Assembly (NCBI GenBank): GCA_026387405.1
Contig: JAPLLV010000057.1
Span: forward strand, 1,503-65,502
DNA from: Candidatus Omnitrophota bacterium
GTDB taxonomy: Bacteria > Omnitrophota > Gorgyraeia > Gygaellales > Profunditerraquicolaceae
Length of the DNA: 64,000 bases
Direction of reading: 5' to 3'
The translations under genes were made by a program, and so were the position numbers. This document shows, piece by piece, positions 705 to 64,000 of the stretch (position 1 is its first letter; the number at the start of each line of letters is the position of its first letter). Below the pieces are notes generated by a model. It saw only the letters and a list, made by a program, of their open reading frames with translations. It ran no database searches and was not told the DNA's origin.

Positions 705-3700
705 ATGAAACGTAGACTCTTTAAGATACTTTCTATAGTTTTGATTTTTCTCCACTTGTGGATAGTGTGCTTGAGGGATTATAGTTTCGCTGCCAGCCAA
801 CAGGATTCTTCTCAGAATAGTTCGAATACAAACTCTACCAAATCGGAGAAGGCGCCGGCTGTTGACAAAGCAGTGTCTGCGAATTCTGCCAGTACGTCTG
901 CGGTCAGTATGAGTAGTTCTTCAGATTCAAGTATAGTTTTCCCACCAACTCCTTTTCAGGCCTCAAATTTCAATCATGTCCTTGATTCAGTTTCTCCGGA
1001 CATATTCACTGGCAGGGCGCAATTGAGCATTCCAATATCTATTCCTCGCGGGAAAAGAGATATCTCTCCCCAGTTAACAATAGCTTATCAAAGCGGCAAT
1101 GGTACTGGCGTTGTAGGGGTAGGATGGTCCCTCGACTTAGGATCAATTGCCCGTTCGACAAAAAAAGGCGTTCCCAAATATGATTCATCCGATATTTTTA
1201 TTGCGCAAGGCCAGGAATTAACGTCCATTGGTAATAGCGAATACAGAAGCCAGATAGAAGGCAGCTTTGTTAAATACGTATTTGACGGGACAACATGGCT
1301 TGCAGTAGATAAAACAGGAACTAAATATTATTTCGGTTCTACAGATGCCTCGCATGTTACAATTTCGAAAGGAACCTATTCCTGGGCATTGGATAAGATA
1401 ATGGATTTAAAAGGCAATTACCTTACGGTTACATATGACAAAAATGGGAATGAACTTTATCCTTCCAATATCTCCTATACAGCAAACGACTCCACCGGAT
1501 TACCGGCAGAATACCATATTACTTTTACCTATGAGAACAGGTTGGATACTTCAACTACTTATATTATCGGTGATTTAGTACAGTTGCTACGGAGGCTAAC
1601 AAAGATAGAAATCTCCTTTGGCAGCAATCTTATACACAAGTACGTATTCGAATATATACAAAGCCCATCTACCCAGAGAAGTCTTCTGAATAAAATTACC
1701 GAATATGGCGCAGATGGTACAACAGCGTCTCCGCCAATAATCTTTACTTACCGAACAAATACCGGCAGTTGGTCAACTGATCAGCAGAAGTGGCATGCTC
1801 CAGACGGAGATTTTATAACTTCTGGCATGGATCAAGGCAGGAGGCTGTACGATTTGAACGGTGATGGTATGGCTGATTTCGTTGTTGCATGCCACGATTG
1901 GACTCTAGCTTCCAACCGGCAACAACTGATTGAAACCTTTCTTGGTTCAAAGAACGGTTTTAGTGCTACGTCTAACTGGTTGACGGTTCCTGGGGGGTAT
2001 TTTACGTTTTATAATAGGAGTATGGGAGGTACAGGGTATTGGGATAATGGCCGGAGATTGGTAGATTTAACCGGAGATGGGATTCCCGAGCTGCTGGTGG
2101 CAAGTCCCCAGGAATGGGTAAAAGGCGGCCCCTATAAGGATACGTATGAATTTAAATATCCGACTAACTTAAATCCCCAATGGTCTGAGAGTACAAACTG
2201 GAATCTTCCTGAAGGATACTTTGTTTATAGAAATGTGGTTGATGATCCTAATAATCCTAATCCTCCTCCTTTCCCAATTGGTTGGGGGATACTCATCATT
2301 TACCAATTTGACGGTGGGATACGTTTCGCTGATTTAAACGGAGACGGTTTAAATGATTTATCTATCGCCTTAGATACACAACGCTCAGTTCCGCGCGATG
2401 TAAACACTTATATTAATACCGGAAGCGGATGGCAGCAGGATACTCGCTGGAATATTCCTGATGGTAACTACTATAGTACGGGATCAGGAGATGGCGGCGT
2501 ACGCCTGGTAGATGTTAATGGCGATGGGCTGGCCGATGTTTTAATTGCCCGCGATGGCAATAAAGCTACTTATTTAAATAATGGCTCCGGTTGGACAAGA
2601 AACGATGCCTACAATATACCAGATGGAGATTTTTGTGATGGGGGGAGAGACCAGGGAAGGATGCTCGTGGATATTAACGGCGACGGATTGCCAGATCTGG
2701 TTATTGCCCAAAATGGATACCATGCAGTTTATATAAATACGGGTTCCGGCTGGAAGCGAGACGATTCTTTTAACCTTCCTGATGGTGACTTTGTAGATGC
2801 AAATGGGAGTGATCAAGGCAGATACCTGGGAGATTTAGATGGTGACGGGGTAATTGATTCATTGGTAGCAAAAGACGGCTATAAAAAAGCCTACCTTAAC
2901 TTAACAGGTGTTCCAGATTTTCTCATCGGCGTTTCTAATGGTTTAGGCGGAAGTACTAATATCGAATATACCCCTTCAACAGCATACAATAATTACGGTG
3001 CTAATCAGACGGGAAGACTTCCTTTTGCGGTTCAGGCCGTTTCCAGGATAACAAGCAATGACGGACAGGGGAATTCATACGTAACGGCATATTCCTATAG
3101 CGGTGGTTATTATTACGCACCTGACCGGGATTACCGCGGCTTTAACTATGTTAAGGTTACCGATGCTACTGGTAATTACAAAGAAAGCTACTTTAAGCAG
3201 GATGACATCCTTAAAGGGAAACCTTATGAACAGGACACAAGCGATTCATCGGGAAAGCTTCTGGCGAAGACTGTAAATGTATGGCAAGCAACCCAGCTTT
3301 ATCAGGGCGTGAATTTCCCGTTTTTGGCAAAAACCGATAGTTTTATCTATGATGGCTCTAGCTATAAGCAGACCGAGACGCAATACCAATATGATAATTA
3401 TGGTAATACCACGACAGTTACTTCCTGCGGTGATATGAGTTTAACCGGTGATGAGAAATCACAAGTTACTGAATTCGTTTATGATGTTTCGGATTGGATA
3501 GTTGCTCTGCCAAAACACGCTAGTCTGTTAGATGCCCAGGGAAACAAGGTTTCGGAAAAATGGTTTTATTATGATTACCATGCTAATGTGGATGATTTAC
3601 CCACTCTGGGCTTATTAACCAAAGAAGAGAACTTGCTCTACAATCCCTTAACTATTCAATCGGCTAGAGTCTCTACTCAGTATACTTATGACCAGTACGG

Positions 3701-10859: not shown

Positions 10860-13179
10860 GCAGGTGGGAGCGGTCCTGGGGACAAAGGATTTTAACCTGG
10901 TCAAGGATTCTATCACCGTATATTCTAAAGACCCGGAAATAGACGTGAGCCGCAAAAGGAGGGTCTACTTAAACAGTTTATGGCCTCAAAAAGCCCTGGA
11001 ATCGTTTTTAATCAAGGGTGTCAAAGATGCATTTCAGAAAGCCGCGAACTTAAAAGACGCCATCGATACTGATCTAAGCCAAACGCAGCTGATAAAATTT
11101 TCTTTATCTAATCTTGGGCCGTCTGCTCTTGTCGAGGGAGGCGGATGGTCCAGGGTGGGGAACTATTATCAGGCCTTGCGGGGGACAGCGGAAGGTAAAT
11201 TCTCCTGGAGCGGGTTAGCGGTTGATGACGGGGAGTATTATTGTTTTTTCAATGCCCCGGATAACGAAGATACCGTGGGAGAGGTAATTGTCGATGATAG
11301 CGATACGGGCGCCTTGATCCTTTCCGGAGAAGGCCCGGGTAAAAAGGTTAAGGTATCCGGCGGGGCCTTTACCGTGCGCATCAGGCCTTCTAAAGACACG
11401 GATTGCCGGTTTTTGAATATTGAGCTGTCCGACATGATCCCGCGTAATGGCTTACAGAGAAAAGTGGTCAGCGGGACCGAGGCATTAGTGATCAATGAAC
11501 TAATGGTAAAGCTTGCAGCGGAATTTACGTCAGGGACAATTTCAATTACGCCGGGGCAGGATTATAAACATGTATTTTCCGGTGTAAGGGTGGGATCATT
11601 TCATTTACAAATAAAGGCAGGTACCGCCGGCGCGACAGTGGGCGATGTCACGGTAAACGGACAGACCGCAAGTAATATGCACGACGGAGATTATTTTCCG
11701 TCTGTGGTGCATGTGGATTGCGATGACCCAAAAAATAATACAGGGCCGCTAACGCTTGAGATAAGGAATAATTCTGTTTCGAACACCTCTTTCGGCGGCA
11801 TCAAGGTCCTGCAGGAACCCGACGCGGAATACGTCGAGATACTTAATCTTTCCGGAGACACTATTGATTTGAGCAATTTTGTCCTGGTAGTTTATAACAG
11901 TTCAGGGGATCTCGTGCCGGGGTGGCCTGCTACTATACCCAAGGGCGCCAAGATCGATCCCTACCAAGAGCTGGTGTTGGCGGTAGATAGTAATGACGGT
12001 TCTCCCGCTCCGGTTAATCTTAGGAGTAATGGGATCTCGTTTCAATCGGTATGGGGCACGACTGCCACAGGCCTTATCTTTGAAGAGCAGGGTATTATCG
12101 ATAAGCGTTTTGATGCGCTTCCCGATGCCGGAGGAATGGTTATGTTGTGCAACGCGCAGGGAGAGCGTATCGATGCGGTTAAATACGCGGCTCAGTCGCC
12201 CGGATTCACAAGCCTGGAACGCGGTGATCCCAGCGCCGCCGGTGATTCCGACGGCGACGGCCTGTTTGACTTATGGTATATCGGTTCGCAAAAAGAACTG
12301 CACGCTACGCCCGGGAGCGTGAATGAGAATGCCGGGACATACACCATTGATAAGACTACAGGCGAGGCGATTAAACATTATCCCACCGAGGTCAAGGTCT
12401 TTAACCATCCGCTTTCGAACCTTACCGACGTGTTGCAGTTATCATCCGGGCAGGCCTGGAAGAAATTTACTATTTCCGACCTGGCCCAGATGGTGGACCA
12501 TTTTGCCTATGAGGCGCTTAATTTCGATCTTGTCGGCCATTATAAAGAGGGAGATTTCCTGGAGCGCAGCGGGGCATTCGAATCGCGCCACCAGGGTGAA
12601 AGCGGAACTTGGGAGTTTACCGATATCGCGCGCGGAGATTATCTATTGACTATTCTCGGGGATGAGAGCACGCAGTTCTCGGGAAACGAGAAAGTGCAGG
12701 TTTCATTAAAGACCGGCAGCCAGCAGGACTTTACACCCGCCGCAACGATCTTCTTTACCACGCAGGGGATTATATTTTACGGCAAAATAGAATTCTTGAA
12801 AAACCCTTCGCAGCTGACTTTAAAGATTGTCAATAACACCGAAACAAGGATAGCTATAAAATCAATACAGCTTGAGCCGATTTATGTGACACCCGGCCGT
12901 ATCAATGTGAATACCGCCAGGGCCGAAGTCTTACGCGGCATCTTGGGATCGGATTCGCTGGTGCAGACGGTGATAAAAAACCGGCCTATCGGCGCTAAGG
13001 ATAGCAGGAAACTGGGGGTGGGGGACCTGTTTTTGCTGGATTCAAGTTTCCTGGCTTTTCACAACTACCTTACCGTAAAATCCGATGTCTATGAAATAAG
13101 ATGTCGGGGTGAATACCATCCCATAGATAAGATTTTGGCCACCCTGAATATCCGTTCTGTAGTAGAGCGGGGGGAATAG
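10825..13179 (+). CDS. GspK-like minor pseudopilin body with inserted lamin-tail domain (LTD) and C-terminal GspK helix-hairpin-helix region (frame 1)
   Basis: LTD signature ...PDAEYVEILNLSGDTIDLSNFVLVVYNSSGD... GspK-type C-terminus ...GRINVNTARAEVLRGILGSDSLVQTVIKNRPIG... Frame 1 is open from 10798, and the ORF has only a TTG/GTG start. Confidence 0.55.
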   Translation: MGVSRRPLNAIEQVGAVLGTKDFNLVKDSITVYSKDPEIDVSRKRRVYLNSLWPQKALESFLIKGVKDAFQKAANLKDAIDTDLSQTQLIKFSLSNLGPSALVEGGGWSRVGNYYQALRGTAEGKFSWSGLAVDDGEYYCFFNAPDNEDTVGEVIVDDSDTGALILSGEGPGKKVKVSGGAFTVRIRPSKDTDCRFLNIELSDMIPRNGLQRKVVSGTEALVINELMVKLAAEFTSGTISITPGQDYKHVFSGVRVGSFHLQIKAGTAGATVGDVTVNGQTASNMHDGDYFPSVVHVDCDDPKNNTGPLTLEIRNNSVSNTSFGGIKVLQEPDAEYVEILNLSGDTIDLSNFVLVVYNSSGDLVPGWPATIPKGAKIDPYQELVLAVDSNDGSPAPVNLRSNGISFQSVWGTTATGLIFEEQGIIDKRFDALPDAGGMVMLCNAQGERIDAVKYAAQSPGFTSLERGDPSAAGDSDGDGLFDLWYIGSQKELHATPGSVNENAGTYTIDKTTGEAIKHYPTEVKVFNHPLSNLTDVLQLSSGQAWKKFTISDLAQMVDHFAYEALNFDLVGHYKEGDFLERSGAFESRHQGESGTWEFTDIARGDYLLTILGDESTQFSGNEKVQVSLKTGSQQDFTPAATIFFTTQGIIFYGKIEFLKNPSQLTLKIVNNTETRIAIKSIQLEPIYVTPGRINVNTARAEVLRGILGSDSLVQTVIKNRPIGAKDSRKLGVGDLFLLDSSFLAFHNYLTVKSDVYEIRCRGEYHPIDKILATLNIRSVVERGE

Positions 13180-13390
13180 TAATTTCCATCCGATTCATAA
13201 CTCCTTGTAAATAAAGAAGTTTAGGTCCTCTTCAAACAAAGCCTACCATTTCTTCCGATGCATTTTTTATAGCATTAGCGTGTGCCGAATCATATTCTTC
13301 ACATCACCTGTTGCTTTTCGTTCGCGTCGGGACATTGTTCGCGCACGAATTTTTTCGCCGTGCACTACGGCTTATGGCTCGATTCTGAGT

Positions 13391-13432
13391 TCTAGACCCG
13401 CGGTGGAAAGATGCTTCCACCGCGGGTCTGGA
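13391..13432. repeat. REP-like palindromic hairpin (family CCAGACCCGCGGTGGA)
   Basis: tctagacccgcggtggaa / agatgc / ttccaccgcgggtctgga: inverted arms with one mismatch. Confidence 0.7.
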
Positions 13433-13440
13433 ACTGGTCC

Positions 13441-13555
13441 ATATTGTTCGAGCGAGCCCTGAGCGAAGCGAAGGGCGAGTCGAGAACAGGCTCTGTTACT
13501 TCTCGACTCCGGCCTCGCTTACGCTCGGCCTTCGCTCGAAGAATAAAAAAGCCGC
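13441..13555. repeat. interspersed repeat module (ttgttcgagcgag...gagtcgagaa...cttcgctcgaagaataaaa), related to copies at 49196-49290, 19966-20058 and 59931-60013
   Basis: Shares the CGCTCGAAC / TTCTTCGAGCG / TCGAGAAG sub-motifs with those loci. Confidence 0.4.
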
Positions 13556-16639: not shown

Positions 16640-19600
16640 GATATAAAAGCTATCTAAATTTTCGTCATTGCGAGCCCCGAAGGGGCGAAGCAATCAAATC
16701 TGAGATTGCTTCGTTTCGCTCGCAACCTTCGGGATTGCTTCGTCGCCTGCGGCTCCTCGCAATGACGATACCGATAATTTTCTCCCTGTTGTTAGGCCAT
16801 TCTGCGGCAGTTGAGAATGTGGCGACTGGTGATAATGTGACAGAGCTTAAGTTGGCCAAGGAGTTGGCCAGGCAGGAAACTCAAACCAAGAAAGAAGATC
16901 TGCGCCGCCAAAAAGAGGACGAGAAGAGGCGTAAGCTCCAGGCGCAGGCCAAAGAAAAACAAGAATTGCGTAGACAAAAGATATCGCAAAAGAAACGGCA
17001 GCAGGAAGAATTGCAGGCTAAAAAAGAACAGCAGAAAAGGCAATTAGAAGAGTCTAAGGAAGAGGAGTTGGCGCGGGAACGCGAGCGCCAGTGGCAATTG
17101 GCCGAGGAGCAACGGCAGCTGCAGGAGGATCTCGAAGAGAGAGGCCTGCAGGAAAAGAGGCACAAAGATGCGCAGGAGCAGCTAAAAGAAGATGTCCGGC
17201 AGGCAGACAAGCAAAAAGCAGAGGAGCTCCGGCAGCAGTTGGCTGATCAAAAGAAATATGAGCAGTATGAATTAATGCAACAAAAAGATGAAGAGGCGAA
17301 GAGGCTGGAGGAGCTCAGGGAACAGATAAAGGTCAGGGACGAAAGGCATATCTGGCAATTGGCCCAGGATAGAAAAGAATTAGAGCACCAGTTAGCCGCC
17401 GCGGATCTGGAGCGGCAGTTAAAACAGGAGGCGGCGCAAAAGGCAAAGGAACAGGCCAGGTTAGAAGCCCGGGTCAGGGAAGAAGACCGCCGGAAGCAAG
17501 AGGAGATCCAAAGACAGCAAAGGATAGATCAGCTGGCCGGGCAGAAGAAGCTGCAAGAGAAGAAGCAGCAGGAATTAAAGGCCGAGGTCGGCCTTAAAGA
17601 AGAGGTGCGCCGCAGCAGGGAGATGGAAGAGAGGCAACATACTTATGATGAGCTGGCCCAACGGCGCGTAGCGCAGTTAAATAGATTGGAATTCGCCCGG
17701 CTGAGCAGGGAAGAGGCCGAAGCCGAATTAAAGATCAAACATGAAGAGAAGTTAAAAGCGGAGGTTTTAGAGAAGCTGCGCAGGGAAGAAGGACAGGGAC
17801 AGATAGTCCAGGAGCGCTTGCAAAAAGAAGAAACGGCGAGGCAGAAGAGGGAGATTGGGCTGTCTGTTACCAAAGAAGAAGCCGCTAAAACTATTAAAGA
17901 GGCAAAGGCCGGGGAAGAAGAACGCTTGAAAAATATAACAGAAGAAAAAAAGCGCCGGTCGGAAGAAGCTGTCCAGAAGAAACAAGAAGAGCTAAAAATT
18001 TTGGCTGCCGCCAGAGAGCGCCGGGAGCGGGAATTGAAGGCAAAACAAGGGGGGTTGGCCGCGAAAGAGAAAGAACTACAGGAGAAACTCAAAGCCTCTG
18101 CCCTTGAAGCAGTGCAGGGCAAGGCCATGACCGAGGTGATGCTGGCCAAACAACGCGAGGACAACGCCAAGATAAATAAAATCGAGCATCTCTGGCGTAA
18201 ATCCAGGAAACTCTACGCCGAAGCGAAATACGAAGAGGCCATAAAAATGTTCCAGGAGATCATAGTCCTTGAAGGAAACCCGCGCGTAAAATACACCCCT
18301 TACGCCAAGATGTATTTAGAGAAGGCCCAGCAGAAGATCGAAGAACAAAAGAAATACGCGGCCGAACAGAATATAGCGCTGATGGATAATGAAATGAGCC
18401 GCCAGGTGCTCACCAAACAGATGCCTCCATACCTCGAACCTCCGCAGAAGACCGAGATCAAGGGTTTCACGGACGAGGAGCGCCTGATCGAGATGTCGCC
18501 TGTCAGGAAGACACTGCAGAAGAAGATCACCTTGGATTTCGACAAGTTAGATTTAAAAACGGTGATTGCCTTTTTATCGCAGGAGTCCGGGGTAAATATT
18601 ATCGCCTCGCAGAAAGTTCTGGAGATGGGGCTTAAGGTGACCGCGCGTTTCAAGGATACCGCCGCCGAGGAGGCGGTAAAATATATAACCAAGAGTTTAG
18701 GCCTTATCTACCGTATTGATAAAGACCTGATTTGGATCGCCCACCCGGAGGAGATCGCCAAGGAACCCCTTGAGACCCGGGTATATTATCTGAATAAGGG
18801 GGCGGGTTTATTTACGGAATTTTCCCCTATCTCGTCAGGTTCTTCAAGCGGCGAAACAAGCCTTGGAGGCAGTTCCGCGCAGATCACCAAAGTCCGCACC
18901 CTGGAAGATACCCTGAAGGACGCGATCCCCTGGCCTTCGGATTCCAAGCTTGTTTATGACAAGCGCGTGAACGCGCTCCTGGCGCGTAATACCCCGCAGA
19001 ATTTGCAGATGCTGGAAGATATACTTTTCAGCGTAGATGTCACGCCCTACCAGATCCTTATCGAGGCCAGGTTCATTGAAGTCGAAGTCGACGATACCAA
19101 GGAGTTTGGTTTGGAATGGCAATTCAACAACGATTTCGCGCTCACGTCCGCGTCTAATAAAGGCGGCAAAGCCAAAACCGTTATTACGAAGAATAGCGGT
19201 GTTGATTTCTCTACTTTCGCCCGCGCCGCAGAAGGATTAAACTTTACTTATCAGGGGTTGTTGACTAACCCGCAATTCCAGACCGTCTTACACGCGCTTT
19301 CAGAATCAAAGAAGATCAAGACCCTTTCTTGTCCGCGCATAACTACCTTGAACAATCAGCTGGCTACGATGAAGGTGGTTGACGAATGGATCTATCCCAC
19401 GCGGTATGAGTATGAAATTGTCCAGGTGGATTTAAACGGCGACGGGCTTTTTACCGGGGCGGGTGAGACGACATACAAAAACGTGCCCAAGGATTTCTTG
19501 CGGCGCGATGTGGGTATCCTGCTTAAGGTGGTTCCTTCCATGGGCTCGGATAGAAAGACCATCAGCCTTTCCTTGATCCCGGAAGTAAGCGAAGGTACTG

Positions 19601-19892: not shown

Positions 19893-20058
19893 TTGTCATT
19901 GCGAACCCCCAAAGGGGGTGAAGCAATCACGTTTGAGATTGCCGCGTCGCCTGCGGCTCCTCGCTCGAACAATATAGTTTATTCTTCGAGCGGAGCGAAC
20001 GAAGTGAGCGTAGTCGAGAAGATAAAATTGTCGGTTCGCTCGAACAGTATTCTTGGGG
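19893..20058. repeat. composite repeat: RPE-like MITE copy B plus a TTCTTCGAGCGG...TCGAGAAG module
   Basis: ttgtcattgcgaacccccaaagggggtgaagcaatcacgtttgagattgc... is ~90% identical to copy D (23461-23555). Its 3' part matches 59931-60013. Confidence 0.65.
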
Positions 20059-25944: not shown

Positions 25945-25988
25945 TTCCAGACCCGCGGTGGATGCATGCTTCCACCGCGGGTCTGGAA
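25945..25988. repeat. REP-like palindromic hairpin, perfect (ttccagacccgcggtgga / tgcatgc / ttccaccgcgggtctggaa)
   Basis: Lies between the stop of the upstream gene (25936) and the ATG of the giant gene (26003). Confidence 0.8.
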
Positions 25989-47880: not shown

Positions 47881-48677
47881 AGGGACAGCGACTATTTTTC
47901 CCGGCATTCTTTGGTAATTACTGAAATATTTCCGTTAGATTTTCCTTCCTTTTGCGTCTGTTAATAGTAGAAGGGAGGGATATACCATGCCTCGGATTGG
48001 CAGAGTAGTAGCTGTGGGTTTACCCCATCACATTACGCAAAGAGGAAACTATCAGCAAGATGTATTTCTTGAGCCAGATGACAGGAGGCAATACCTTAGC
48101 TGGATTAGAGAATATAGTCTAAAGTACAGCCTTTCCATTTTGGTCTATTGCCTGATGCAGAATCACGTGCACTTTATCGCTATCCCAAATGAAATTGATT
48201 CCCTGGCTAAGACATTCAATGCCGCTCATATGCGTTATTCGCAGTACTTTAACAAGAAGCTGAAGCAGCGAGGGCATCTCTGGCAAGGGCGTTTCTATTC
48301 TTGCGTATTAGACGAACCTCATCTTTTGCTTGCCGCCCGCTACATTGAAAGGAACCCTGTGCGCGCCGGCCTTGTAAAAAAACCGTGGCAGTGGCCTTGG
48401 TCAAGCGCGATAAGCCATGTCAATGGGAAAGAGAACGGTCTTATTGAACTTGGCGATCTTCTTGGGATTATAGGCATGTCATGTCCTTCATGGGAAAAAT
48501 ACATTGATTCCCCAGAAGAGAATAATTCCTTGCAGCGTATAAGAAAACATACCCTTACCGGGCATCCTTTGGGAACAATAGCATTTATAGAAAAACTGGA
48601 AGCAAAATTCGGCAGAAGGTTGTGTGCATTACCGATAGGCAGGCCGAAGAAAAACTAAGAAAATAGTCGCTGTCCCT
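47881..48677 (+). mobile_element. RAYT/IS200-like unit bounded by 18-bp perfect inverted repeats
   Basis: The left arm agggacagcgactatttt (47881-47898) and right arm aaaatagtcgctgtccct (48660-48677) are exact reverse complements. They enclose the transposase gene 47987-48658. Confidence 0.65.
47987..48658 (+). CDS. REP-associated tyrosine transposase / IS200-like Y1 HUH transposase (COG1943 family), copy 1
   Basis: ...GLPHHITQRGNYQQDVFL...ILVYCLMQNHVHFIAIP... (HxH motif) ...RYSQYFN... (catalytic Y region), similar to E. coli YafM-type RAYTs. Confidence 0.85.
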   Translation: MPRIGRVVAVGLPHHITQRGNYQQDVFLEPDDRRQYLSWIREYSLKYSLSILVYCLMQNHVHFIAIPNEIDSLAKTFNAAHMRYSQYFNKKLKQRGHLWQGRFYSCVLDEPHLLLAARYIERNPVRAGLVKKPWQWPWSSAISHVNGKENGLIELGDLLGIIGMSCPSWEKYIDSPEENNSLQRIRKHTLTGHPLGTIAFIEKLEAKFGRRLCALPIGRPKKN

Positions 48678-48756
48678 ATGTACCAATTGCAAATAAGGCT
48701 TTGGCAGAGCAGGATTAAAAAAGGTTCAATTATGCGCAAAGCGTTAATTCCGCCGT

Positions 48757-48772
48757 CACCGCGGGTCTGGAG
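48757..48772. repeat. REP-like motif, single arm (caccgcgggtctggag)
   Basis: 99 nt downstream of RAYT copy 1, immediately upstream of ORF 48775. Confidence 0.6.
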
Positions 48773-48774
48773 CT

Positions 48775-49194
48775 ATGATTAAAAAAATCACCGCAGAGAA
48801 TTTTAAACATTATGGCAGGGTAATTGAATATGCAGGCAAGCCAAAAAGCGGCCGGCATAGCCTTTTTCGCATTATAATGAGAGAGCCGCGGGAGTCTGGC
48901 TGGAGAATAGCCTATCTGTTGGTGCGGGATAAGGCCATCAGGCGGCTGGAGCAGCACCTGCATACCTACGAGAGCTTTGAACCGGTCAAAGGCAGAGCGC
49001 TTTTGTATCTATCTGCAACTAAAGACCTCCGGAAAATAGAGTGTTTTCTCCTGGATAAACCGGTGGTGCTATATAAAGGCATCTGGCACGGCGTGGTGAC
49101 GTTGGGCAGGGAATCAGAGATAAAGATAACCGAGAATGCCCGGGTGAGGTCGTCTTACTGGAGTGTCGGAACTGTTCTAGGCGGGAGAAGGTAA
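48775..49194 (+). CDS. cupin-fold protein resembling ureidoglycolate lyase (AllA-like); function uncertain
   Basis: ...FKHYGRVIE...LEQHLHTYESFEPVKGRALLYLS...VLYKGIWHGVV... parallels AllA motifs (YGDVIE / LERHPLGTQAFIPMKG / NYHRNVWHH). Confidence 0.4.
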   Translation: MIKKITAENFKHYGRVIEYAGKPKSGRHSLFRIIMREPRESGWRIAYLLVRDKAIRRLEQHLHTYESFEPVKGRALLYLSATKDLRKIECFLLDKPVVLYKGIWHGVVTLGRESEIKITENARVRSSYWSVGTVLGGRR

Positions 49195-49498: not shown

Positions 49499-52315
<2,817 letters not shown>

Positions 52316-52324
52316 GAAAAATTT

Positions 52325-52430
52325 ACGTCATTGCGAGGGCGCCTTTTGCCCGAAGCAATCCCTCCTGAAAGCGAGATTGCTTCCCGCCACGCTTCGCTCG
52401 CGGCTTCGGCTCTGACCGCTCGCAATGACA
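52325..52430. repeat. RPE-like MITE, copy F
   Basis: acgtcattgcgagggcgcc...gaagcaatccctcctgaaagcgagattgcttc...gctcgcaatgacaac. Confidence 0.7.
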
Positions 52431-52439
52431 ACTGTGACT

Positions 52440-53075
52440 ATGATCCTGGAAACCCTTAGTTTAGGCGCGATAGAGACTAATTGCTATGTCCTGGCGGTTC
52501 AAGAAGGGGCCGGCGCTGTAATCATCGACCCCGGGGCAGAGGAGCGCAAAATAAGGGCAGTGCTGGCAAGGTATGATCTGCATCCGGAGCTGGTGGTAAA
52601 TACCCACGGCCATTATGACCATATAGGCTGCGACGACAAATTCAATGTGCCGGTTGCGATACACAAAGACGATGTCTCTTTTTTGAAAGATCCCATGCTT
52701 AACCTGTCCGGGATGTTTTCTGTTCCTTATAAAACAGATGCCGAGATAATACCCCTGGAGGATAAACAGGTTATAGAGCAGGGCGGGATAACCTTAGAGG
52801 CCTTGCATATACCCGGACATACGCCTGGAGGCATCGCTCTTTTATTGAAGAGCCCGCAGAATAATATCGTTTTCACCGGGGATACATTATTTTGCCGGGG
52901 AATAGGCAGGTCCGATTTAGACGGGGGAGATGGGGCGCTGCTTATTCGCAAGATAAAAGAAAAATTGTTCAGCCTCCCCGACAATACGATGGTTTATCCC
53001 GGCCACGGTCCATCTACTACGATCGGCGAAGAAAAACAGCACAATCCCTATTTCCAGACCCGCGGTGGAGGTTAG
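52440..53075 (+). CDS. MBL-fold metallo-hydrolase (hydroxyacylglutathione hydrolase-like)
   Basis: Metal-binding motif VNTHGHYDHIG, later HIPGHTPG and PGHG. The track start 52425 lies inside MITE F; ATG 52440 is more likely. The last 8 codons overlap a REP arm. Confidence 0.75.
   Translation: MILETLSLGAIETNCYVLAVQEGAGAVIIDPGAEERKIRAVLARYDLHPELVVNTHGHYDHIGCDDKFNVPVAIHKDDVSFLKDPMLNLSGMFSVPYKTDAEIIPLEDKQVIEQGGITLEALHIPGHTPGGIALLLKSPQNNIVFTGDTLFCRGIGRSDLDGGDGALLIRKIKEKLFSLPDNTMVYPGHGPSTTIGEEKQHNPYFQTRGGG
53052..53069. repeat. REP-like motif, single arm, overlapping the 3' end of the MBL hydrolase gene
   Basis: ttccagacccgcggtgga. Confidence 0.6.
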
Positions 53076-53157: not shown

Positions 53158-53793
53158 ATGTCTTATAGAAAAACGCCTTTGGTTGAAGGTAATGTTTATC
53201 ATGTTTACACTAGAAGCATTGCAGGGTATGTAGTTTTCAGCGGCGAACGCGAGTATCATCGTGCGTTGGAGACAATAAATTTCTACGTTGCAGAACATCC
53301 GCCTAGTAAATTTTCTTCCAGACCCGCGGTGGAAGTGGATAAAGGAGAAAAGCTGGCTCGGATAATCGCCTATTGCTTGATGCCTACACACATACATTTG
53401 GTTCTGCAGCAGTTGAAAAAGAATGGAATTTCTCGGTTGATGAATTTGGCGTTTAACAGTTACAGTTCCTATTTCAATAAAAAACATAACAGGAGGGGCC
53501 CGCTTTGGGAAAGCAGGTTTAAAGTCGTGCCTGTAGAAAGCGACGAACAGTTACTACATCTGACCAGGTATATTCATTTAAACCCGGTGACTGCTTTTTT
53601 GGTAAACAGTCCTGAAGGATGGACATATTCCTCTTATCGTGAATACCTCGGTCTTGTGGAAGAAAGACAAAGAATCTGTGAATTCTCCAATTGTCTTGAG
53701 ATTAATGCTCTGGAGTATCAGCGTTTTGTTTGCGATCGCATCGGTTATCAACGGGAATTGGCCAGGATAAAAAATCTACTTATTGACGAATAA
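53158..53793 (+). CDS. REP-associated tyrosine transposase / IS200-like Y1 HUH transposase (COG1943 family), copy 2
   Basis: ...YHVYTRSIAGYVVF...IIAYCLMPTHIHLVLQ... (HxH) ...SYSSYFNKKHNRRGPLWESRF... It carries an internal in-frame REP arm at 53316-53335 (peptide SRPAVE). Confidence 0.85.
   Translation: MSYRKTPLVEGNVYHVYTRSIAGYVVFSGEREYHRALETINFYVAEHPPSKFSSRPAVEVDKGEKLARIIAYCLMPTHIHLVLQQLKKNGISRLMNLAFNSYSSYFNKKHNRRGPLWESRFKVVPVESDEQLLHLTRYIHLNPVTAFLVNSPEGWTYSSYREYLGLVEERQRICEFSNCLEINALEYQRFVCDRIGYQRELARIKNLLIDE
53316..53335. repeat. REP-like motif, single arm, inside the RAYT copy 2 coding sequence
   Basis: ttccagacccgcggtggaag, shares the extended form ...ggaagtgg with the copy at 53808. 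Confidence 0.6.
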
Positions 53794-53807
53794 ACCTTTA
53801 TTTTTCC

Positions 53808-53826
53808 TCCAGACCCGCGGTGGAAG
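53808..53826. repeat. REP-like motif, single arm, just 3' of RAYT copy 2
   Basis: ctccagacccgcggtggaagtgg. Confidence 0.6.
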
Positions 53827-56868: not shown

Positions 56869-57978
56869 ATGAAGGTAATAAGGGGAATTTCAAATATCAG
56901 GCGTTTTCCGCTGCCGGTGGTGGCATTAGGCGTATTTGACGGCGTGCACCTGGGGCACAGGAGTATTCTTTCGGCGGCGGTTGAGACTGCCAAAGAAATA
57001 AGAGGGACCAGCGTTGCCGTGACCTTCTGGCCGCACCCGCAAAATAGGAAGAGCCTTTATTCTCTTGAACATCGCCTGCGCATAATCGGCGAATTGGGGC
57101 TTCAGGCGGCGATCGTAATAAAGTTTACCGGGGCGTTCTCGCGCCTTTCGGCAGAGCGTTTTGTCAAAGACATCCTCGTGGATCGCATTTCGGCCCGTTA
57201 TATCTTCATAGGAAAAAATTTCCATTTCGGTAAAGATAGAAAGGGTGATTACCGCCTTTTGCAAAGATCCTCCGCGCGAAATAATTTTAAAGTAAGGGTA
57301 TTTGAGATCATACGGCGTAAAGATATGCCCATAAGCAGCACGTTGTTGCGCGAGCTGATAAGCCGAGGAGAATTATCCCGGGCAAGGCAATTATTGCTGC
57401 GGCCGGTGAGTGTTCTGGGCACAGTGATCAAGGGGGAGTCCAGAGGTTCTTCCCTGGGATTTCCCACGGCCAATATCGACCCACATCATGAGGTGCTTCC
57501 TCCTGACGGGATTTACGCGGTGCGCGTTATCCTGGGAGGGAAAAAGTTTAAAGGCGTTTGTTATATAGGTAAAAAGCCTACTTTTAGAAAGCATCTATCC
57601 AATAATCGTCATTGCGAGGAGGCTGAAGAGATTCCTCGCCTGTCATTGCGAGGCACCGCAGGTGCCGAAGCAATCTCTATAACAGGCTCGGAACAGGCTG
57701 CGCAATCTCAAAAACAGGATTGCTTCGCCCCCTGCCTTGCCGGCAGGCAGGCTTCGGGGCTCGCAATGACGGTTGCCGGGCAGTTTCCGAGGCGCCGAGA
57801 GTCAACAGGCATTGAGGTGCATATCCTGGGTTTTCACAGGAATATTTACGCTAAGACGTTAGAGATACAATTTATAAAAAAAATAAGGGAGGACAGGAAA
57901 TTCAGTTCCGCATTAAAGCTCTCCGGCCAGATAAAAAAAGATATATCCCGCGCAAAAAACATTTTTTCCCACACCTGA
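56869..57978 (+). CDS. ribF: bifunctional riboflavin kinase / FMN adenylyltransferase, carrying an in-frame MITE insertion (~56 codons)
   Basis: N-terminal ...VVALGVFDGVHLGHRSIL... The kinase region ...GVCYIGKKPTF... is separated from ...GIEVHILGFHRNIYAKTLEIQFIKKIREDRKF... by the translated MITE (SNNRHCEEAEEIPRLSLRGTAGAEAISI...GLAMTVAG). Confidence 0.85.
   Translation: MKVIRGISNIRRFPLPVVALGVFDGVHLGHRSILSAAVETAKEIRGTSVAVTFWPHPQNRKSLYSLEHRLRIIGELGLQAAIVIKFTGAFSRLSAERFVKDILVDRISARYIFIGKNFHFGKDRKGDYRLLQRSSARNNFKVRVFEIIRRKDMPISSTLLRELISRGELSRARQLLLRPVSVLGTVIKGESRGSSLGFPTANIDPHHEVLPPDGIYAVRVILGGKKFKGVCYIGKKPTFRKHLSNNRHCEEAEEIPRLSLRGTAGAEAISITGSEQAAQSQKQDCFAPCLAGRQASGLAMTVAGQFPRRRESTGIEVHILGFHRNIYAKTLEIQFIKKIREDRKFSSALKLSGQIKKDISRAKNIFSHT
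57605..57772. repeat. RPE-like MITE, copy G (compound: two left termini), inserted in-frame within ribF
   Basis: tcgtcattgcgaggaggctgaagagattcctcgcctgtcattgcgaggcaccgcaggtgccgaagcaatctc...gattgcttcgccccctgccttgccggcaggcaggcttcggggctcgcaatgacgg. Confidence 0.75.
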
Positions 57979-59903: not shown

Positions 59904-60013
59904 CGTTCTCCCTGCCTGCCGGCAGGCAGGGACTCGGCGCCTGCGGCGCCTCGCTCGAACGATACGTTTTATTCTTCGAGCGGAGCGAACGAAGTGAGCG
60001 TAGTCGAGAAGAA
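59896..60013. repeat. composite interspersed repeat (ccctgcctgccggcaggcagggactcgg + cctcgctcgaacgata + ttcttcgagcggagcgaacgaagtgagcgtagtcgagaag)
   Basis: Near-copy of 49196-49290 and of the 3' half of 19893-20058. Confidence 0.6.
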
Positions 60014-60062: not shown

Positions 60063-61793
60063 GTGCATATTAGCGACTACCACCGCCGCTTCAATGCGGT
60101 ATTCTTCCTATTCTTCCTATTTTTCTTTTTCTGCATAGCCCGTCTTTTGTTCATCCAGTTTTTTCGCGGCCGCTACCTTGCCGGCGTAGCCAAAAAACAA
60201 CAGAATTTATTCGTGGAATTGGAGGCGCGCCGGGGAGCTGTCTTCGATGTGAACCTCAAGCCCCAGGCCGTGAATGTTTCGGTAGATTCCCTCTACGCCT
60301 CAAGCAGCGAGATACCGGACAAGATAAAACCCGCGCTCATCAGGCAGCTTGGCGCTATCTTGGGCGTGGATCAGGGTTATCTAAAGGATAAGTTATTCCG
60401 TAATAAATCTTTTGTCTGGCTGGCGCGAAAAATACCTTCGGCCGAGAGCGAGTCCGTGAGGCGCTTAAATGTAAGGGGCCTGGATTTTATCAAAGAGAGC
60501 AAACGCTGTTATCCTAACGGCTATTTGAGCAGCCACGCTTTAGGCTTCGCGGGATTGGATAATACGGGTCTCGAGGGGCTCGAGCTGCATTATAATAAAT
60601 ATTTAAAGGGCGAACCCGGGTGGACCTTTATCCTGCGGGACGCGCGCCAGAAAAAACTGGATCTCTCCGACAGGGTGCTTATGCCGAAGGACGGGTATAA
60701 CCTTGTCCTGACCATCGACGAAGTCATCCAGTACATAGCCGAGAGGGAACTGGACAAGGCCTTCCGCGAGCATCATGCCAAGGGTGCCAGCATCGTGGTG
60801 ATGAATCCGCATACCGGGGCGATCCTCGCCATAGCAAACCGGCCTACCTATGATCTAAATGAATATTCTTCTTCAGCTAAGGATGCCCGGCGTAACCGCG
60901 CGATCTGCGATATGTTTGAGCCCGGTTCGGTATTCAAGATCGTTACCTGTTCAGCAGTGCTTGAAGAAGGCAAGGTTAAGGAGAGCGATAGATTTTTCTG
61001 CGAGAACGGGGCCTGGCAGGTGGCAGGGCATGTCCTTCACGACCACCAGCCGCATGGCTGGCTTAGCTTTGCCGAGGTGATCGAGGAGTCCAGCAATATC
61101 GGCACCGTAAAGGCAGCCCAGATCCTGGGGCAGGAATTACTTTATAAATACGCGCGGCTTTTTGGATTCGGGTCCAGGTCCGGTATCGACCTGCCGGGAG
61201 AGATCGGGGGGATGTTGAAGCCGACTAGGTTCTGGTCTAAGACATCGATCACCGCCGTGCCTATGGGGCAGGAGGTGGCGGTTACGGCGTTACAATTAGT
61301 CACGGCCATCTCGGTGATCGCCAACGGCGGACAACTGATGAAACCTTACGTGGTAGATCAGATACGGGATAAATATGAAGAGCCGATCAAAAGATTCTCT
61401 CCGCAGTTAGTGCGTAAGGTTATTTCTGTGGATACCGCAAGCCGTGTCAAGGCAATACTTACGGCGGTAGTGGAGAGCGGCACGGGAAAAATGGCGAAAG
61501 TCCCCGGTTATTCCGCGGCAGGTAAGACCGGCACGGCCCAGAAATTAGAGCCAAATGGCGCTTATTCGCACAATAAATTCACCGCCTCATTCATAGGCTT
61601 TGCTCCGGCAGAAGACCCGGTAATAGCAGTGGCTGTGGTATTGGATGAGCCGCATCCTTACTATTTCGGCGGTGTGGTGTCTGCGCCGGTGTTTAAAAAC
61701 GTCTGCGCGGATGTATTACGCTATCTAAGGGTAAAAGAGACTCAAAATCCGACCCCGGCACTTGTCTTAAATGAGACTAACACATCTGATTAA
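60063..61793 (+). CDS. ftsI: penicillin-binding protein (class B transpeptidase, FtsI/PBP3-like)
   Basis: N-terminal TM; SxxK (SVFKIVT), SxN (EESSNIGT) and KTG (KTGTAQK) motifs. Confidence 0.9.
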   Translation: MHISDYHRRFNAVFFLFFLFFFFCIARLLFIQFFRGRYLAGVAKKQQNLFVELEARRGAVFDVNLKPQAVNVSVDSLYASSSEIPDKIKPALIRQLGAILGVDQGYLKDKLFRNKSFVWLARKIPSAESESVRRLNVRGLDFIKESKRCYPNGYLSSHALGFAGLDNTGLEGLELHYNKYLKGEPGWTFILRDARQKKLDLSDRVLMPKDGYNLVLTIDEVIQYIAERELDKAFREHHAKGASIVVMNPHTGAILAIANRPTYDLNEYSSSAKDARRNRAICDMFEPGSVFKIVTCSAVLEEGKVKESDRFFCENGAWQVAGHVLHDHQPHGWLSFAEVIEESSNIGTVKAAQILGQELLYKYARLFGFGSRSGIDLPGEIGGMLKPTRFWSKTSITAVPMGQEVAVTALQLVTAISVIANGGQLMKPYVVDQIRDKYEEPIKRFSPQLVRKVISVDTASRVKAILTAVVESGTGKMAKVPGYSAAGKTGTAQKLEPNGAYSHNKFTASFIGFAPAEDPVIAVAVVLDEPHPYYFGGVVSAPVFKNVCADVLRYLRVKETQNPTPALVLNETNTSD

Positions 61794-63264
61794 AATATTA
61801 GAGGCAAATCCGAGTATCCCGGAGGCCTGTGATTTTCAGGTCAGGGGCATCGCCTGCGACTCCAAAAAGGTGGGTGAGGATTTTGTCTTTGTGGCTATAA
61901 AGGGGGCAAGGGCAGACGGCCACAAATTCATCGAGGAAGCTATACAGAGAGGCGCGCGCTTTATCGTGGTCCAGAATTCCAGACCCGCGGTGGAAGAAAA
62001 AAGGGGGATATTTTCGTATAAAGATAATAAAAAAGTAATATTCATAGAAGTTAGCGATACAAGAAAGGCGCTTGCGGACCTGGCAGCGCGTTTTTATGAT
62101 CAGCCTTCGCAAAAACTTAAGGTCATCGGCATTACCGGCACCAATGGCAAGACTACGATCTCGTATTTATTGGAAGCCATATTGAAAAAAGCGTCCTTCA
62201 GTTCCGCGGTAGTCGGGACTATCAATTATCATTTTAAGGATAAGATCATTGCTGCCAAAAACACCACTCCCGGGCCGCTTGAACTTCAGGCGCTGCTTGC
62301 CGAGATGCTTAAAGAGAAAACGGAGTACGTGGCTATGGAGGTTTCTTCGCACGCGCTGGACCAGAGGCGCGTTGAAGGCATAAATTTTCATGCCGCGGTG
62401 TTTACCAACCTGACCCAGGATCACCTTGATTACCATCTGACTTTAGAGGAATATTTTTTGGCCAAGGCAAAATTATTTCAGGGTCTTAGTCCCGGGGCAT
62501 TGGCCATAGTGAATAATGATGATCCTTATGGCCGCAGGATAAGAGATCTCACCCCCGCCAGATTTATCGGTTACGGCATAGATAGTCCGGCAGAGGTCAT
62601 GGCCGTTGATCTGGAATGCGATATTAACAGGACGCGGTTTAAGATCAGGACGGATAAACAAACCATAACTTTAGAAAGCCGCCTGATCGGCAAACACAAT
62701 GTCTACAATATATTAGCAGCGGCAGCCTTTAGTCTGGAAGAGGGCATAGAAGTAAAAAACATAAAAGCGGCAATTGAGGATTTCGTTCTTGTCCCGGGCA
62801 GGCTGGAGAGGATAGAAACTCCTGCGGGATTTTCGGTGTTTGTGGATTACGCGCATACTCCGGACGCGCTTTTTAACGTGCTTACGGCATTGCGCAATGT
62901 ATCTTCAGGCAGGTTGATCCTGGTCTTTGGCTGCGGCGGCGACCGCGATAAGACCAAAAGAGCGAAAATGGGTCAGGTGGCCTCTGAGCTCGCAGATCAC
63001 GTTTTTATTACCAGCGATAACCCGCGCTCAGAGGCCCCGGAGGCTATTATCTCTGATATTATAAAAGGGGTGAAAAAAGAGAACTATGCGGCAGTCGTGG
63101 ACCGCCGTCAGGCCATAGAGAAGGCCCTGGGGACAGCCAGGGAAGGGGATATTGTGCTTCTGGCAGGTAAAGGCCATGAGGATTATCAGATATTTAAAGA
63201 CAAGACCATTCATTTTAGCGACCAGGAAGTAGTGCGTGAATGCTTAAGGGCGCTTAATAAATAA
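61771..63264 (+). CDS. murE: UDP-N-acetylmuramoyl-tripeptide synthetase
   Basis: ...GITGTNGKTT... P-loop, ...HFKDKIIAAKNTTPGPLELQALLAEM..., ...AMEVSSHAL... Mur ligase domains. A REP arm is embedded in-frame at 61977-61996. Confidence 0.9.
   Translation: MRLTHLIKILEANPSIPEACDFQVRGIACDSKKVGEDFVFVAIKGARADGHKFIEEAIQRGARFIVVQNSRPAVEEKRGIFSYKDNKKVIFIEVSDTRKALADLAARFYDQPSQKLKVIGITGTNGKTTISYLLEAILKKASFSSAVVGTINYHFKDKIIAAKNTTPGPLELQALLAEMLKEKTEYVAMEVSSHALDQRRVEGINFHAAVFTNLTQDHLDYHLTLEEYFLAKAKLFQGLSPGALAIVNNDDPYGRRIRDLTPARFIGYGIDSPAEVMAVDLECDINRTRFKIRTDKQTITLESRLIGKHNVYNILAAAAFSLEEGIEVKNIKAAIEDFVLVPGRLERIETPAGFSVFVDYAHTPDALFNVLTALRNVSSGRLILVFGCGGDRDKTKRAKMGQVASELADHVFITSDNPRSEAPEAIISDIIKGVKKENYAAVVDRRQAIEKALGTAREGDIVLLAGKGHEDYQIFKDKTIHFSDQEVVRECLRALNK
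61977..61996. repeat. REP-like motif, single arm, inside murE coding sequence (translated SRPAVE)
   Basis: ttccagacccgcggtggaag. Confidence 0.6.
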
Positions 63265-63276
63265 TACCAAATATCA

Positions 63277-63355
63277 TCGTCATTGCGAGGGAGCGAAGCT
63301 ACCGAAGCAATCTCAAAGACGGGATTGCTTCGCCCCTTCGGGGCTCGCAATGACG
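63277..63355. repeat. RPE-like MITE, copy I (murE-murF intergenic)
   Basis: tcgtcattgcgagggagcgaagctaccgaagcaatctcaaagacgggattgcttcgccccttcggggctcgcaatgacg. Confidence 0.75.
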
Positions 63356-63370
63356 TTAACTCGGACAGCA

Positions 63371-64000
63371 ATGTTTACCATATCAGAACTATTACAGGCT
63401 ACAAAAGGTAAATTAATCCGCGGGCGCGCCGATATCAGCGTTAGGGGTATCTCTATTGACTCACGCACTATCGAGCCTTCTTATGCCTTTATCGCCATAA
63501 AAGGGGATAATTTCGACGGCCATGATTTTATTGCCCGGGCAATAGCTAAAGGAGCTAAGGCCATAGTCTACCAATCGTCATTGCGAGGGAGATGTTCTCC
63601 TGTCATTGCGAGGAGCGATTTTTGCGACGAAGCAATCTCTAAAAGCGTGATTGCTTCAGCGCCTGCGGCGCTTCGCAATGACGGCGGGGCTCGCAATGAC
63701 AGTAGAAAAGTAGCATTTATTGAAGTCAGGGATACGGTAAAGGCGCTGGGAGATATTGCTAATTTTCACCGTATGCGGTTTGATATTCCGGTGATCGCGG
63801 TTAGCGGTTCTTCGGGCAAGACCACCGCCAAAGAGATGATCGCCCACGTTTTGGCGTTTAAGTTTAAGGTGCTAAAGTCAGAGGGCACAAAAAACAATAA
63901 TATCGGCCTGCCGCTTACCTTACTGCGGCTAACCCCCAAGCATGAGGCGGTAGTCCTAGAGATAGGCACTAACCATTTCGGCGAGGTAAGGAACCTGGTT
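63371..64000 (+). CDS. murF: UDP-N-acetylmuramoyl-tripeptide--D-alanyl-D-alanine ligase, 3'-truncated by window edge, carrying an in-frame MITE insertion (~42 codons)
   Basis: ATG at 63371. Hand translation is open to the window end: MFTISELLQATKGKLIRGRADISVRGISIDSRTIEPSYAFIAIKGDNFDGHDFIARAIAKGAKAIVYQ [SSLRGRCSPVIARSDFCDEAISKSVIASAPAALRNDGGARNDS] RKVAFIEVRDTVKALGDIANFHRMRFDIPVIAVSGSSGKTT... It is not in the ORF track because no stop falls inside the window. Confidence 0.8.
   Translation, partial: MFTISELLQATKGKLIRGRADISVRGISIDSRTIEPSYAFIAIKGDNFDGHDFIARAIAKGAKAIVYQSSLRGRCSPVIARSDFCDEAISKSVIASAPAALRNDGGARNDSRKVAFIEVRDTVKALGDIANFHRMRFDIPVIAVSGSSGKTTAKEMIAHVLAFKFKVLKSEGTKNNNIGLPLTLLRLTPKHEAVVLEIGTNHFGEVRNLV
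63577..63703. repeat. RPE-like MITE, copy J (compound), inserted in-frame within murF
   Basis: tcgtcattgcgagggagatgttctcctgtcattgcgaggagcgatttttgcgacgaagcaatctctaaaagcgtgattgcttcagcgcctgcggcgcttcgcaatgacggcggggctcgcaatgacag. Confidence 0.75.

Follow-up and report, generated by a model that had tools for sequence, protein, structure and literature searches.

We analysed a 64,000-nt stretch of the genome of a Candidatus Omnitrophota bacterium (contig JAPLLV010000057.1, positions 1,503 to 65,502), which we will call the window. In this window, the adjacent genes murE and murF, which encode paralogous Mur ligases, each contain a palindromic repeat in frame. The repeat in murE is a 20-nt repetitive extragenic palindromic (REP) sequence, and the one in murF is a dimer of REP hairpins of the CGTC-tagged type. 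A first-pass annotation, made from the sequence alone, had proposed in-frame repeats from two different families, and copy searches and translation confirm this. We think that these two palindromic families probably reached the same tolerant loop of murE and murF independently. The closest syntenic relative is the locus L081 (P0001 for MurE, with 88–90% amino acid identity), and the next is L082 (P0002 for MurE, 75%). The genes and inserts in question are as follows.

61771 to 63264, + strand: murE, UDP-MurNAc-tripeptide synthetase, 497 amino acids (Pfam Mur_ligase, Mur_ligase_M, and Mur_ligase_C)
61975 to 62025, + strand: murE loop codons 69–85 (NSRPAVEEKRGIFSYKD), 51 nt, from DNA and protein alignment to L081/P0001 and P0002
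61977 to 61996, + strand: singlet REP core in murE, an exact 20-mer, read N-SRPAVE-E
63371 to 64000, + strand: 5′ part of murF (210 codons), which runs past the window's end (Pfam Mur_ligase and Mur_ligase_M; matches to MurF sequences in the PDB at 1e-29 to 1e-37)
63576 to 63700, + strand: CGTC-tagged REP dimer in murF whose termini are duplicated, 125 nt, from a terminus search (RNA fold −64.2 kcal/mol, z −6.6)

In murE, 51 nt stand in place of 27 nt (RQVSASEDR) in L081, and nucleotide identity to L081, which is 91% outside the loop, falls to nothing within it. MurE from L082 has RPVSASGNR, and the two relatives share R(Q/P)VSAS(E/G)(D/N)R. The window's MurE has 497 amino acids, versus 488 and 489 in the two nearest proteins (88% and 75% identity), and the expansion amounts to 8–9 amino acids, whether it is measured from the two closest relatives or from the family mode, not to the 13 or so that were first estimated. 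(The loop of E. coli MurE, which lacks the REP, is just 5 amino acids shorter than the window's loop.) The REP supplies 20 of the 51 differing nucleotides. As the first-pass annotation had argued, it is not a chance similarity: it matches the copies at 13414 (−), 25969 (−), and 53316 (+) at 20 of 20 positions, and the core TTCCAGACCCGCGGTGGAAG has nine matches with three or fewer mismatches in the window, with 0 expected. Contigs from 16 or more independent sequencing runs encode an identical MurE of 497 amino acids, REP included, so the murE insert is not an assembly artefact. (These contigs end 84 nt beyond the murE stop codon, inside the dimer that separates murE from murF.) We also considered a longer conserved flank of the REP as the source of the other 31 nt of the murE loop, and ruled it out because the copies are conserved only in their core of about 20 nt.

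In murF, about 30 nt of native sequence have become 129 nt. Codons 69–111 (63575–63703) encode 43 residues without a stop codon, which read SSLRGRCSPVIARSDFCDEAISKSVIASAPAALRNDGGARNDS, and the element consists of a complete inner dimer (63601–63683) between an extra pair of termini. The first-pass annotation had described an in-frame MITE (a miniature inverted-repeat transposable element) of about 126 bp; the in-frame repeat stands, at 125 nt, while the label does not, because the element fits a CGTC-tagged REP dimer (see below). Alignments with orthologues, which were run to verify the extra residues in both genes, bear them out. The murF element is absent from all 43 genome-derived and 82 metagenome-derived MurF orthologues from Omnitrophota, and in total about 190 orthologues were compared, none of which has it. 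The loops of the relatives have 10–13 amino acids: YHVSSIRCHE in L081, which is unrelated, and PSPATARLISSHP in L082. Similarly, MurF from E. coli and P. aeruginosa has about 10 residues at this site, versus about 50 in the window (PDB sequences). When we compared the 43-residue peptide to 1.84 billion proteins with HMMER, there was one weak match, which says little given how short the query is. On both sides, the insert is flanked by well conserved murF sequence, and Ka/Ks between these flanks and L081 is 0.22. For murE outside the loop, Ka/Ks is 0.24, and these ratios indicate that murE and murF are still under constraint. Because the relatives carry other, shorter loops at both sites, the alignments indicate that both inserts are derived states; they also indicate that both native loops were replaced and that neither was cleanly interrupted. 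As to whether the murF loop of L081 (7650–7680) might be a remnant of a dimer, we found the resemblance unconvincing, as this loop is four tandem TATCANG heptamers.

The two inserts are at homologous positions. The first-pass annotation had placed both in the loop before a conserved strand, and comparing the alignments of the N-terminal domains of MurE and MurF with hhalign (probability 99.9%) puts both inserts between GA(R/K)xIVxQ and KVxFIEVxDT, with the same flanking strands. AlphaFold models agree. The MurE insert lies between strands at residues 62–68 and 90–94, and the MurF insert lies between strands at residues 64–68 and 115–119; in both proteins, a helix follows. The model of MurE has a mean predicted local distance difference test (pLDDT) score of 91, and its sole segment below 50 is residues 72–85. 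The model of the N-terminal part of MurF has a mean of 83.8, and residues 69–112, the insert, are its low-confidence part. Based on these models, both inserts are predicted to be disordered surface peptides in a flexible segment between two strands.

Across Omnitrophota, insertions are concentrated at this loop. In 87 of 121 sequences, the MurE segment from GA to DT has 24–25 residues; longer ones reach 47, and the window's has 33. In these 121 sequences (488 consensus columns), insertions of at least 5 amino acids occur only at the loop (19 sequences) and near the N-terminus (5 sequences). Among 108 full-length MurF sequences, the loop has the largest cluster of such insertions (14 sequences), and a second cluster is at residues 260–275 (13 sequences). 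The loop inserts of other lineages are diverse and are mostly GC-rich hairpins (for instance, CCTGCCGGCAGG, read PAGRQ), and some of the hairpin modules recur in other genomes and in the window. In several lineages, the sequence of the loop changes much more quickly than that of its flanks. The first-pass annotation had offered either a permissive surface loop or a preference at the DNA level. The clustering of insertions, the pLDDT scores, and the many unrelated inserts in other lineages support the permissive loop; the DNA may also contribute (see below). Overall, these sequences strongly support a permissive, fast-evolving loop as the best explanation for the shared position. If the loop is permissive and turns over quickly, then inserts in both paralogues are unsurprising.

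The 20-nt REP is associated with Y1/HUH transposases of the RAYT type (REP-associated tyrosine transposases). The relevant features are:

53158 to 53793, + strand: RAYT (Y1/HUH transposase; Pfam Y1_Tnp), with REPs on either side at 53052–53071 and 53807–53826
47987 to 48658, + strand: second Y1_Tnp or RAYT-like gene (Pfam Y1_Tnp), with a diverged REP (48748–48784, − strand) and another REP (49778–49797) nearby
13390 to 13433, no strand assigned: inverted REP doublet, similar to REPINs (REP doublets forming hairpins), from the REP copy search
25945 to 25988, no strand assigned: second inverted REP doublet, from the REP copy search

The diverged REP at 48748–48784 is the tenth copy, which makes 10 copies per 64 kb. 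Conservation among the copies is confined to a core of 19–20 nt or so, and the hairpin is weak (5–6 bp). Besides the two doublets, the REPs are singlets, and five of these six are on the + strand, which is also the strand of the genes. Most of the copies are intergenic; three are within open reading frames (ORFs), namely murE, the RAYT gene, and the 3′ end of a gene for a metallo-β-lactamase (MBL)-fold protein. In the RAYT gene, the copy (53316–53335) is perfect and in frame, and it is read SSRPAVEV, which is also the frame of the murE copy. The loop that holds it varies in length (14–35 amino acids) in all homologues, and the homologue P0247 has a hairpin-type insert (PTGRRQAG) there. This RAYT protein has the HxH motif (THIH) and the tyrosine of RYIHLNP, both invariant across homologues, and it is identical in at least 20 samples. 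(One RAYT protein from the window is 100% identical to an NCBI protein from "Candidatus Omnitrophica.") None of the 165 related loci that we examined has the window's REP. L081 has a different RAYT (12381–12872), between ftsW and murG in its own dcw (division and cell wall) cluster, with inverted repeats of the GTAG type (AGACCGTTTCTAC/GTAGAAACGGTCT) on either side of this gene and no copy of the window's REP. We also noticed that the MBL-fold hydrolase ends (…PYFQTRGGG*) with seven codons from the REP at 53052–53071, which is read there in a frame that differs from that of the copies in murE and RAYT.

The second family is defined by the termini GTCATTGCGAG/CTCGCAATGAC, which have 22 matches in the window, versus 0.74 expected. 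These termini bound nine elements of 78–165 nt, eight of which are dimers. In the consensus, an invariant outer stem and an invariant central stem (GAAGCAATC/GATTGCTTC) are combined with two variable arm hairpins, which change by compensatory substitutions. A single arm folds into an unpaired CGTC, an ATTGC/GCAAT stem that surrounds a small hairpin, and a C tail. Most copies carry CGTC as the tag, and the rest have TGTC or GGTC. The arm's 5-bp stem surrounds a second, variable hairpin of 4–6 bp, whose loop has 3 nt. The terminal inverted repeats of the dimers are perfect, with 11–12 bp. Seven of the nine elements are intergenic, and the copies in murF and ribF are in frame.

57607 to 57771, + strand: CGTC-tagged REP dimer of 165 nt in frame inside ribF (56869–57978), which splits the Flavokinase domain in Pfam

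The window's RibF has 369 amino acids, versus 323 in L081 (1271–2242), which is 46 amino acids shorter. The ribF of L081 has a degenerate remnant of a dimer (…GGGGAGCTCGCAATGCG…) at the same loop, so either the insertion is older than the split between the lineages or the loop was hit twice.

This family is better described as a variant of the CGTC-tagged REP dimer class, in the superfamily of the Rickettsia elements RPE-4/6, than as a classical MITE, judging by the sequence and predicted folding of its copies. We call it a variant because the dimensions of its stems and loops differ from those of the described CGTC families. It does share terminal inverted repeats, a length under 500 bp, the absence of a transposase ORF, and multiple copies (nine) with classical MITEs derived from insertion sequences (ISs). 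Unlike those, the window's dimers lack target-site duplications: we found no direct repeats beside any of the nine copies, and no clean empty site in the relatives. Nor does the window's 64 kb contain a parent IS with the same terminal inverted repeats, and the repeats beside the RAYT genes are the 20-nt REP, not CGTC units. A common target motif, which the first-pass annotation had suggested looking for, was not found across the nine dimer copies or the REP copies. Rfam had no match for the REP or the dimer, and a literature search for the dimer's termini gave only chance matches to primers. Some elements (13440–13480, 19950–19985, and 59940–59985) have a second type of terminus, TTGTTCGAGCGAG / CTCGCTCGAACAA, instead of GTCATTGCGAG; these may be a sister family or a hybrid. 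Also, two genes appear to start at an ATG within a dimer's right terminus, CTCGCAATGAC. The MBL-fold gene (MTTVT…) would start at 52425 in the dimer 52326–52429. The other is a secretin gene that would start at about 16759 in the dimer 16663–16767, where MTIPIIFSLLL resembles a signal peptide; this ORF is also open upstream, in frame across the whole dimer.

We propose that this genome hosts two kinds of mobile palindromes, a 20-nt REP that would be served by the RAYT (Y1/HUH) transposases and a head-to-head dimer of CGTC-tagged REP hairpins of 78–165 nt. The murE REP and the murF dimer would be independent arrivals between the last two β-strands of the N-terminal domain, each of which replaced the native loop. 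Because murE and murF are essential, only events that kept the frame, brought no stop codon, and fell in a structurally indifferent segment would survive. And because the loop is the main tolerant segment in both enzymes, both survivors would be located there. Such a filter is plausible, and it is not demanding: across eight dimer copies, 20 of 48 reading frames are stop-free, and the REP is stop-free in all six frames. The inserts would be translated as disordered surface peptides and would most likely be neutral passengers. We infer both the mechanism of insertion and this neutrality.

Instead of being tolerated, the repeats might be attracted to the loop by its DNA (by AT-richness, a motif at its boundary, or microhomology). 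We consider this unlikely, but there are several hints of it. The insert-free loop DNA of L081 is among the top 2–5% of 30-nt windows for AT-richness (rank 11 of 480 in murE and 23 of 449 in murF), and 38 of 45 positions in the flanks to the left of the CGTC dimers are A or T (p = 6e-6). However, AT-rich flanks are expected anyway, given that most of the dimers are intergenic. In murE, the native sequence …GGTCCAGA is followed by AT and then by the REP's TCCAGA, which is a duplication with a period of 8 nt, although this is a single observation. In at least 10 other lineages, the inserts begin right after the last codon of the strand and are flanked by tandem 7–8-mers from the local sequence (TATCANG, GAAYCAC, AAGTCAC, AGTCCAC, or CAGGGTA), beside one or two GC-rich hairpins; L081, L086, L087, L092, L093, L097, L112, L126, and L140 have this architecture. 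These tandem repeats might be repeated target duplications, degenerate REP tags, or products of slippage. Targeting fits less well with the lack of a common motif or target-site duplication among the copies, with the second and unrelated hotspot of MurF at residues 260–275, and with the inserts in RibF and RAYT, which are in other loops. Also, two unrelated families, presumably with different machinery, would need the same preference. A broader idea is that the boundary between strand and loop in these N-terminal domains is a hypervariable site across the phylum that is actively targeted or selected: tagged hairpin modules would insert repeatedly, duplicate 7–8 nt of local sequence, outpace the flanks, and move between the paralogues by gene conversion. 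If this were true, a loop-diversifying process would act on two essential cell-wall enzymes, rather than junk being passively tolerated. We consider this idea improbable.

Another way for both paralogues to acquire inserts is gene conversion, in which an insert in one gene is copied to its paralogue at the homologous loop. In other Omnitrophota genomes, the sequences demonstrate that such conversion across the loop does take place between murE and murF. In L126, murE (1649–1880) and murF (3115–3340) are about 98% identical over a tract of about 165 nt that takes in the entire loop insert, and both proteins contain QSHPSL(P/S)LRTSKVTKSPVK. L093 has an older tract (170–400 versus 1627–1860), and in L015 (1915–2150 versus 3369–3600), the flanks of the loops are 93–95% identical and the loops are unrelated. 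Even in the window, murE and murF are unusually similar over the 36 nt downstream of their loops, with 75% identity versus a median of 48.5% across 114 loci. However, the upstream flanks in the window are 53% identical, which is at the median, and the inserts share no sequence. Because the window's inserts are from different families, gene conversion cannot explain them, and we consider it extremely improbable as their origin. The inserts might also be functional. The peptides could alter the behavior of the Mur ligases (their interactions, localization, or resistance to inhibitors), or hairpins in the mRNA could tune the translation or decay of the dcw operon. The stable fold of the murF element, the second dimer between the two genes where they ancestrally overlapped (see below), and the fast turnover of the loop relative to its flanks would fit with this. 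We nevertheless think that a function is very unlikely: the inserts of different lineages are unrelated in sequence, most orthologues have none, the peptides are predicted to be disordered, a scan for promoters and terminators gave no signal above background, and no Rfam family matched. Finally, the murF insert could have been misassembled at a multicopy repeat, or murE and murF could be decaying copies. Short-read contigs from other samples do break exactly at these repeats, and there is no other record of exactly this RibF with the insert. But the murF insert preserves the frame, has no stop codon, and has conserved flanks on both sides; at least 16 runs gave the same assembly of the REP-bearing murE allele; Ka/Ks is low for both genes; and the genes lie in a complete, syntenic dcw cluster. 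An artefact or a pseudogene is also extremely improbable.

Several observations weigh against two independent arrivals in a tolerant loop, or limit what can be said about them. The 31 new nucleotides of murE outside the REP match no conserved flank of the REP copies. Neither gene shows a clean empty site or a target-site duplication, and so the events are not reconstructable. The murF insert is known from this one assembly, without support from independent contigs, because short-read contigs break at these repeats. The C-terminal part of murF is beyond the window, so that the gene is known to be intact only up to the window's end. The inserts are presumably translated and the enzymes presumably still active, for which the Ka/Ks of the flanks (0.22–0.24) is the indirect evidence. 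And the tandem 7–8-mers at the boundary of strand and loop could point to a site-directed process rather than to selection alone.

Insertion of REPs or of Rickettsia palindromic elements (RPEs) in frame is already documented, so the phenomenon itself is known. What is new is that two paralogues were hit at the homologous loop by two families, that the loop is a hotspot across a phylum, and that loops are exchanged by gene conversion. RPEs are described as palindromic repeats in frame in housekeeping genes (Ogata et al. 2000, Science 290:347, as cited in PMC10969869), and RPE-4/6 belong to the CGTC-tagged class (PMC3733652). Like RPEs, the window's elements are multicopy and in frame, have no stop codon, are missing from orthologues, and are predicted to fit with the fold. 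RPE-4/6 dimers encode SFLRKQES...LDSRFRGND, whose ends resemble SSLRG...ARNDS of the murF insert because both elements begin with CGTCAT and end with ATGACG. In contrast, Rickettsia is an obligate intracellular alphaproteobacterium, not a member of Omnitrophota, and the stem sequence of its elements differs. Also unlike RPEs, the window's elements have an extra variable inner hairpin in each arm, they hit two adjacent paralogues at the homologous loop, and the native loop was replaced.

For the GTAG- and CGTC-tagged REP superfamilies, it has been argued that intragenic copies lie in flexible linkers or loops, and suggested that this location makes them neutral (Di Nocera, De Gregorio, and Rocco 2013, PMC3733652). 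A MurC ligase with a CGTC-3 element at its N-terminus is on the list in that survey, and neither MurE nor MurF appears there; the phyla that it covered did not include Omnitrophota. The window's dimers resemble CGTC-tagged REPs in having an unpaired CGTC tag (sometimes TGTC), a stem that begins with AT, and a short tail. In both, head-to-head dimers predominate, no dedicated transposase is adjacent, and some copies are intragenic. However, the described stems have 8–9 bp with loops of 4–5 nt, while the window's 5-bp stem encloses a second hairpin. The window's REP resembles REP/REPIN-RAYT systems (Nunvar 2010, PMC2817692; Bertels and Rainey 2011, PMC3116915): it is an imperfect palindrome of 20 nt, it forms inverted doublets, and a Y1/HUH gene lies between REPs. 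Unlike those systems, its core lacks GTAG on either strand, two RAYT-like genes are within 6 kb of each other, and copies are found inside coding sequence, while REPs are extragenic by definition. ERIC (enterobacterial repetitive intergenic consensus) sequences and the QMITE of Coxiella (PMC5896051; Delihas 2007) are also small non-autonomous repeats that are sometimes fused in frame and add residues, but most of these cases concern the ends of genes or hypothetical proteins, rather than in an internal loop of two essential paralogues. Our search of the literature turned up nothing about repeats in Omnitrophota. This case extends selfish palindromes in frame in essential genes, which were described mainly from Rickettsia and Opitutus, to Omnitrophota and to Mur ligases. 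It is also a natural experiment on the tolerance of one loop, in two paralogous enzymes that are drug targets, for 8 to more than 40 extra arbitrary residues. If the hotspot is targeted rather than tolerated, then REP-like hairpins would have an unrecognised mechanism of insertion. For annotators, it is a warning that peptides derived from repeats, start codons borne by repeats, and gene conversion between paralogues shape genes in uncultured genomes.

The window ends in a + strand dcw cluster (mraZ, rsmH, an ftsL-like gene, ftsI, murE, and murF), which is complete and syntenic with L081 (gene order ftsI-murE-murF-mraY). The best database matches of its genes are from metagenome-assembled genomes of Omnitrophota. 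The two Mur ligases have the P-loop motifs GTNGKT and GSSGKT, and MurE has the DNPR motif, which indicates the meso-diaminopimelate type; among PDB sequences, E. coli MurE matches it with E = 1e-90. Between murE and murF is another dimer:

63278 to 63355, + strand: canonical CGTC-tagged REP dimer of 78 nt in the spacer between murE and murF (RNA fold −45.6 kcal/mol, z −6.7)

In both of the closest relatives, murE and murF overlap by 22 nt (7446–7467 in L081 and 4411–4432 in L082), while in the window they are separated by a spacer of 106 nt (63265–63370) that holds this dimer. The ancestral overlap was therefore lost, and presumably translational coupling was too. Elsewhere in the window, we noticed a giant ORF of 6696 amino acids (25958–46048), with about 50 dispersed copies of a GGCAACGTCGGCATCGGGACGAC motif (GNVGIGTT).

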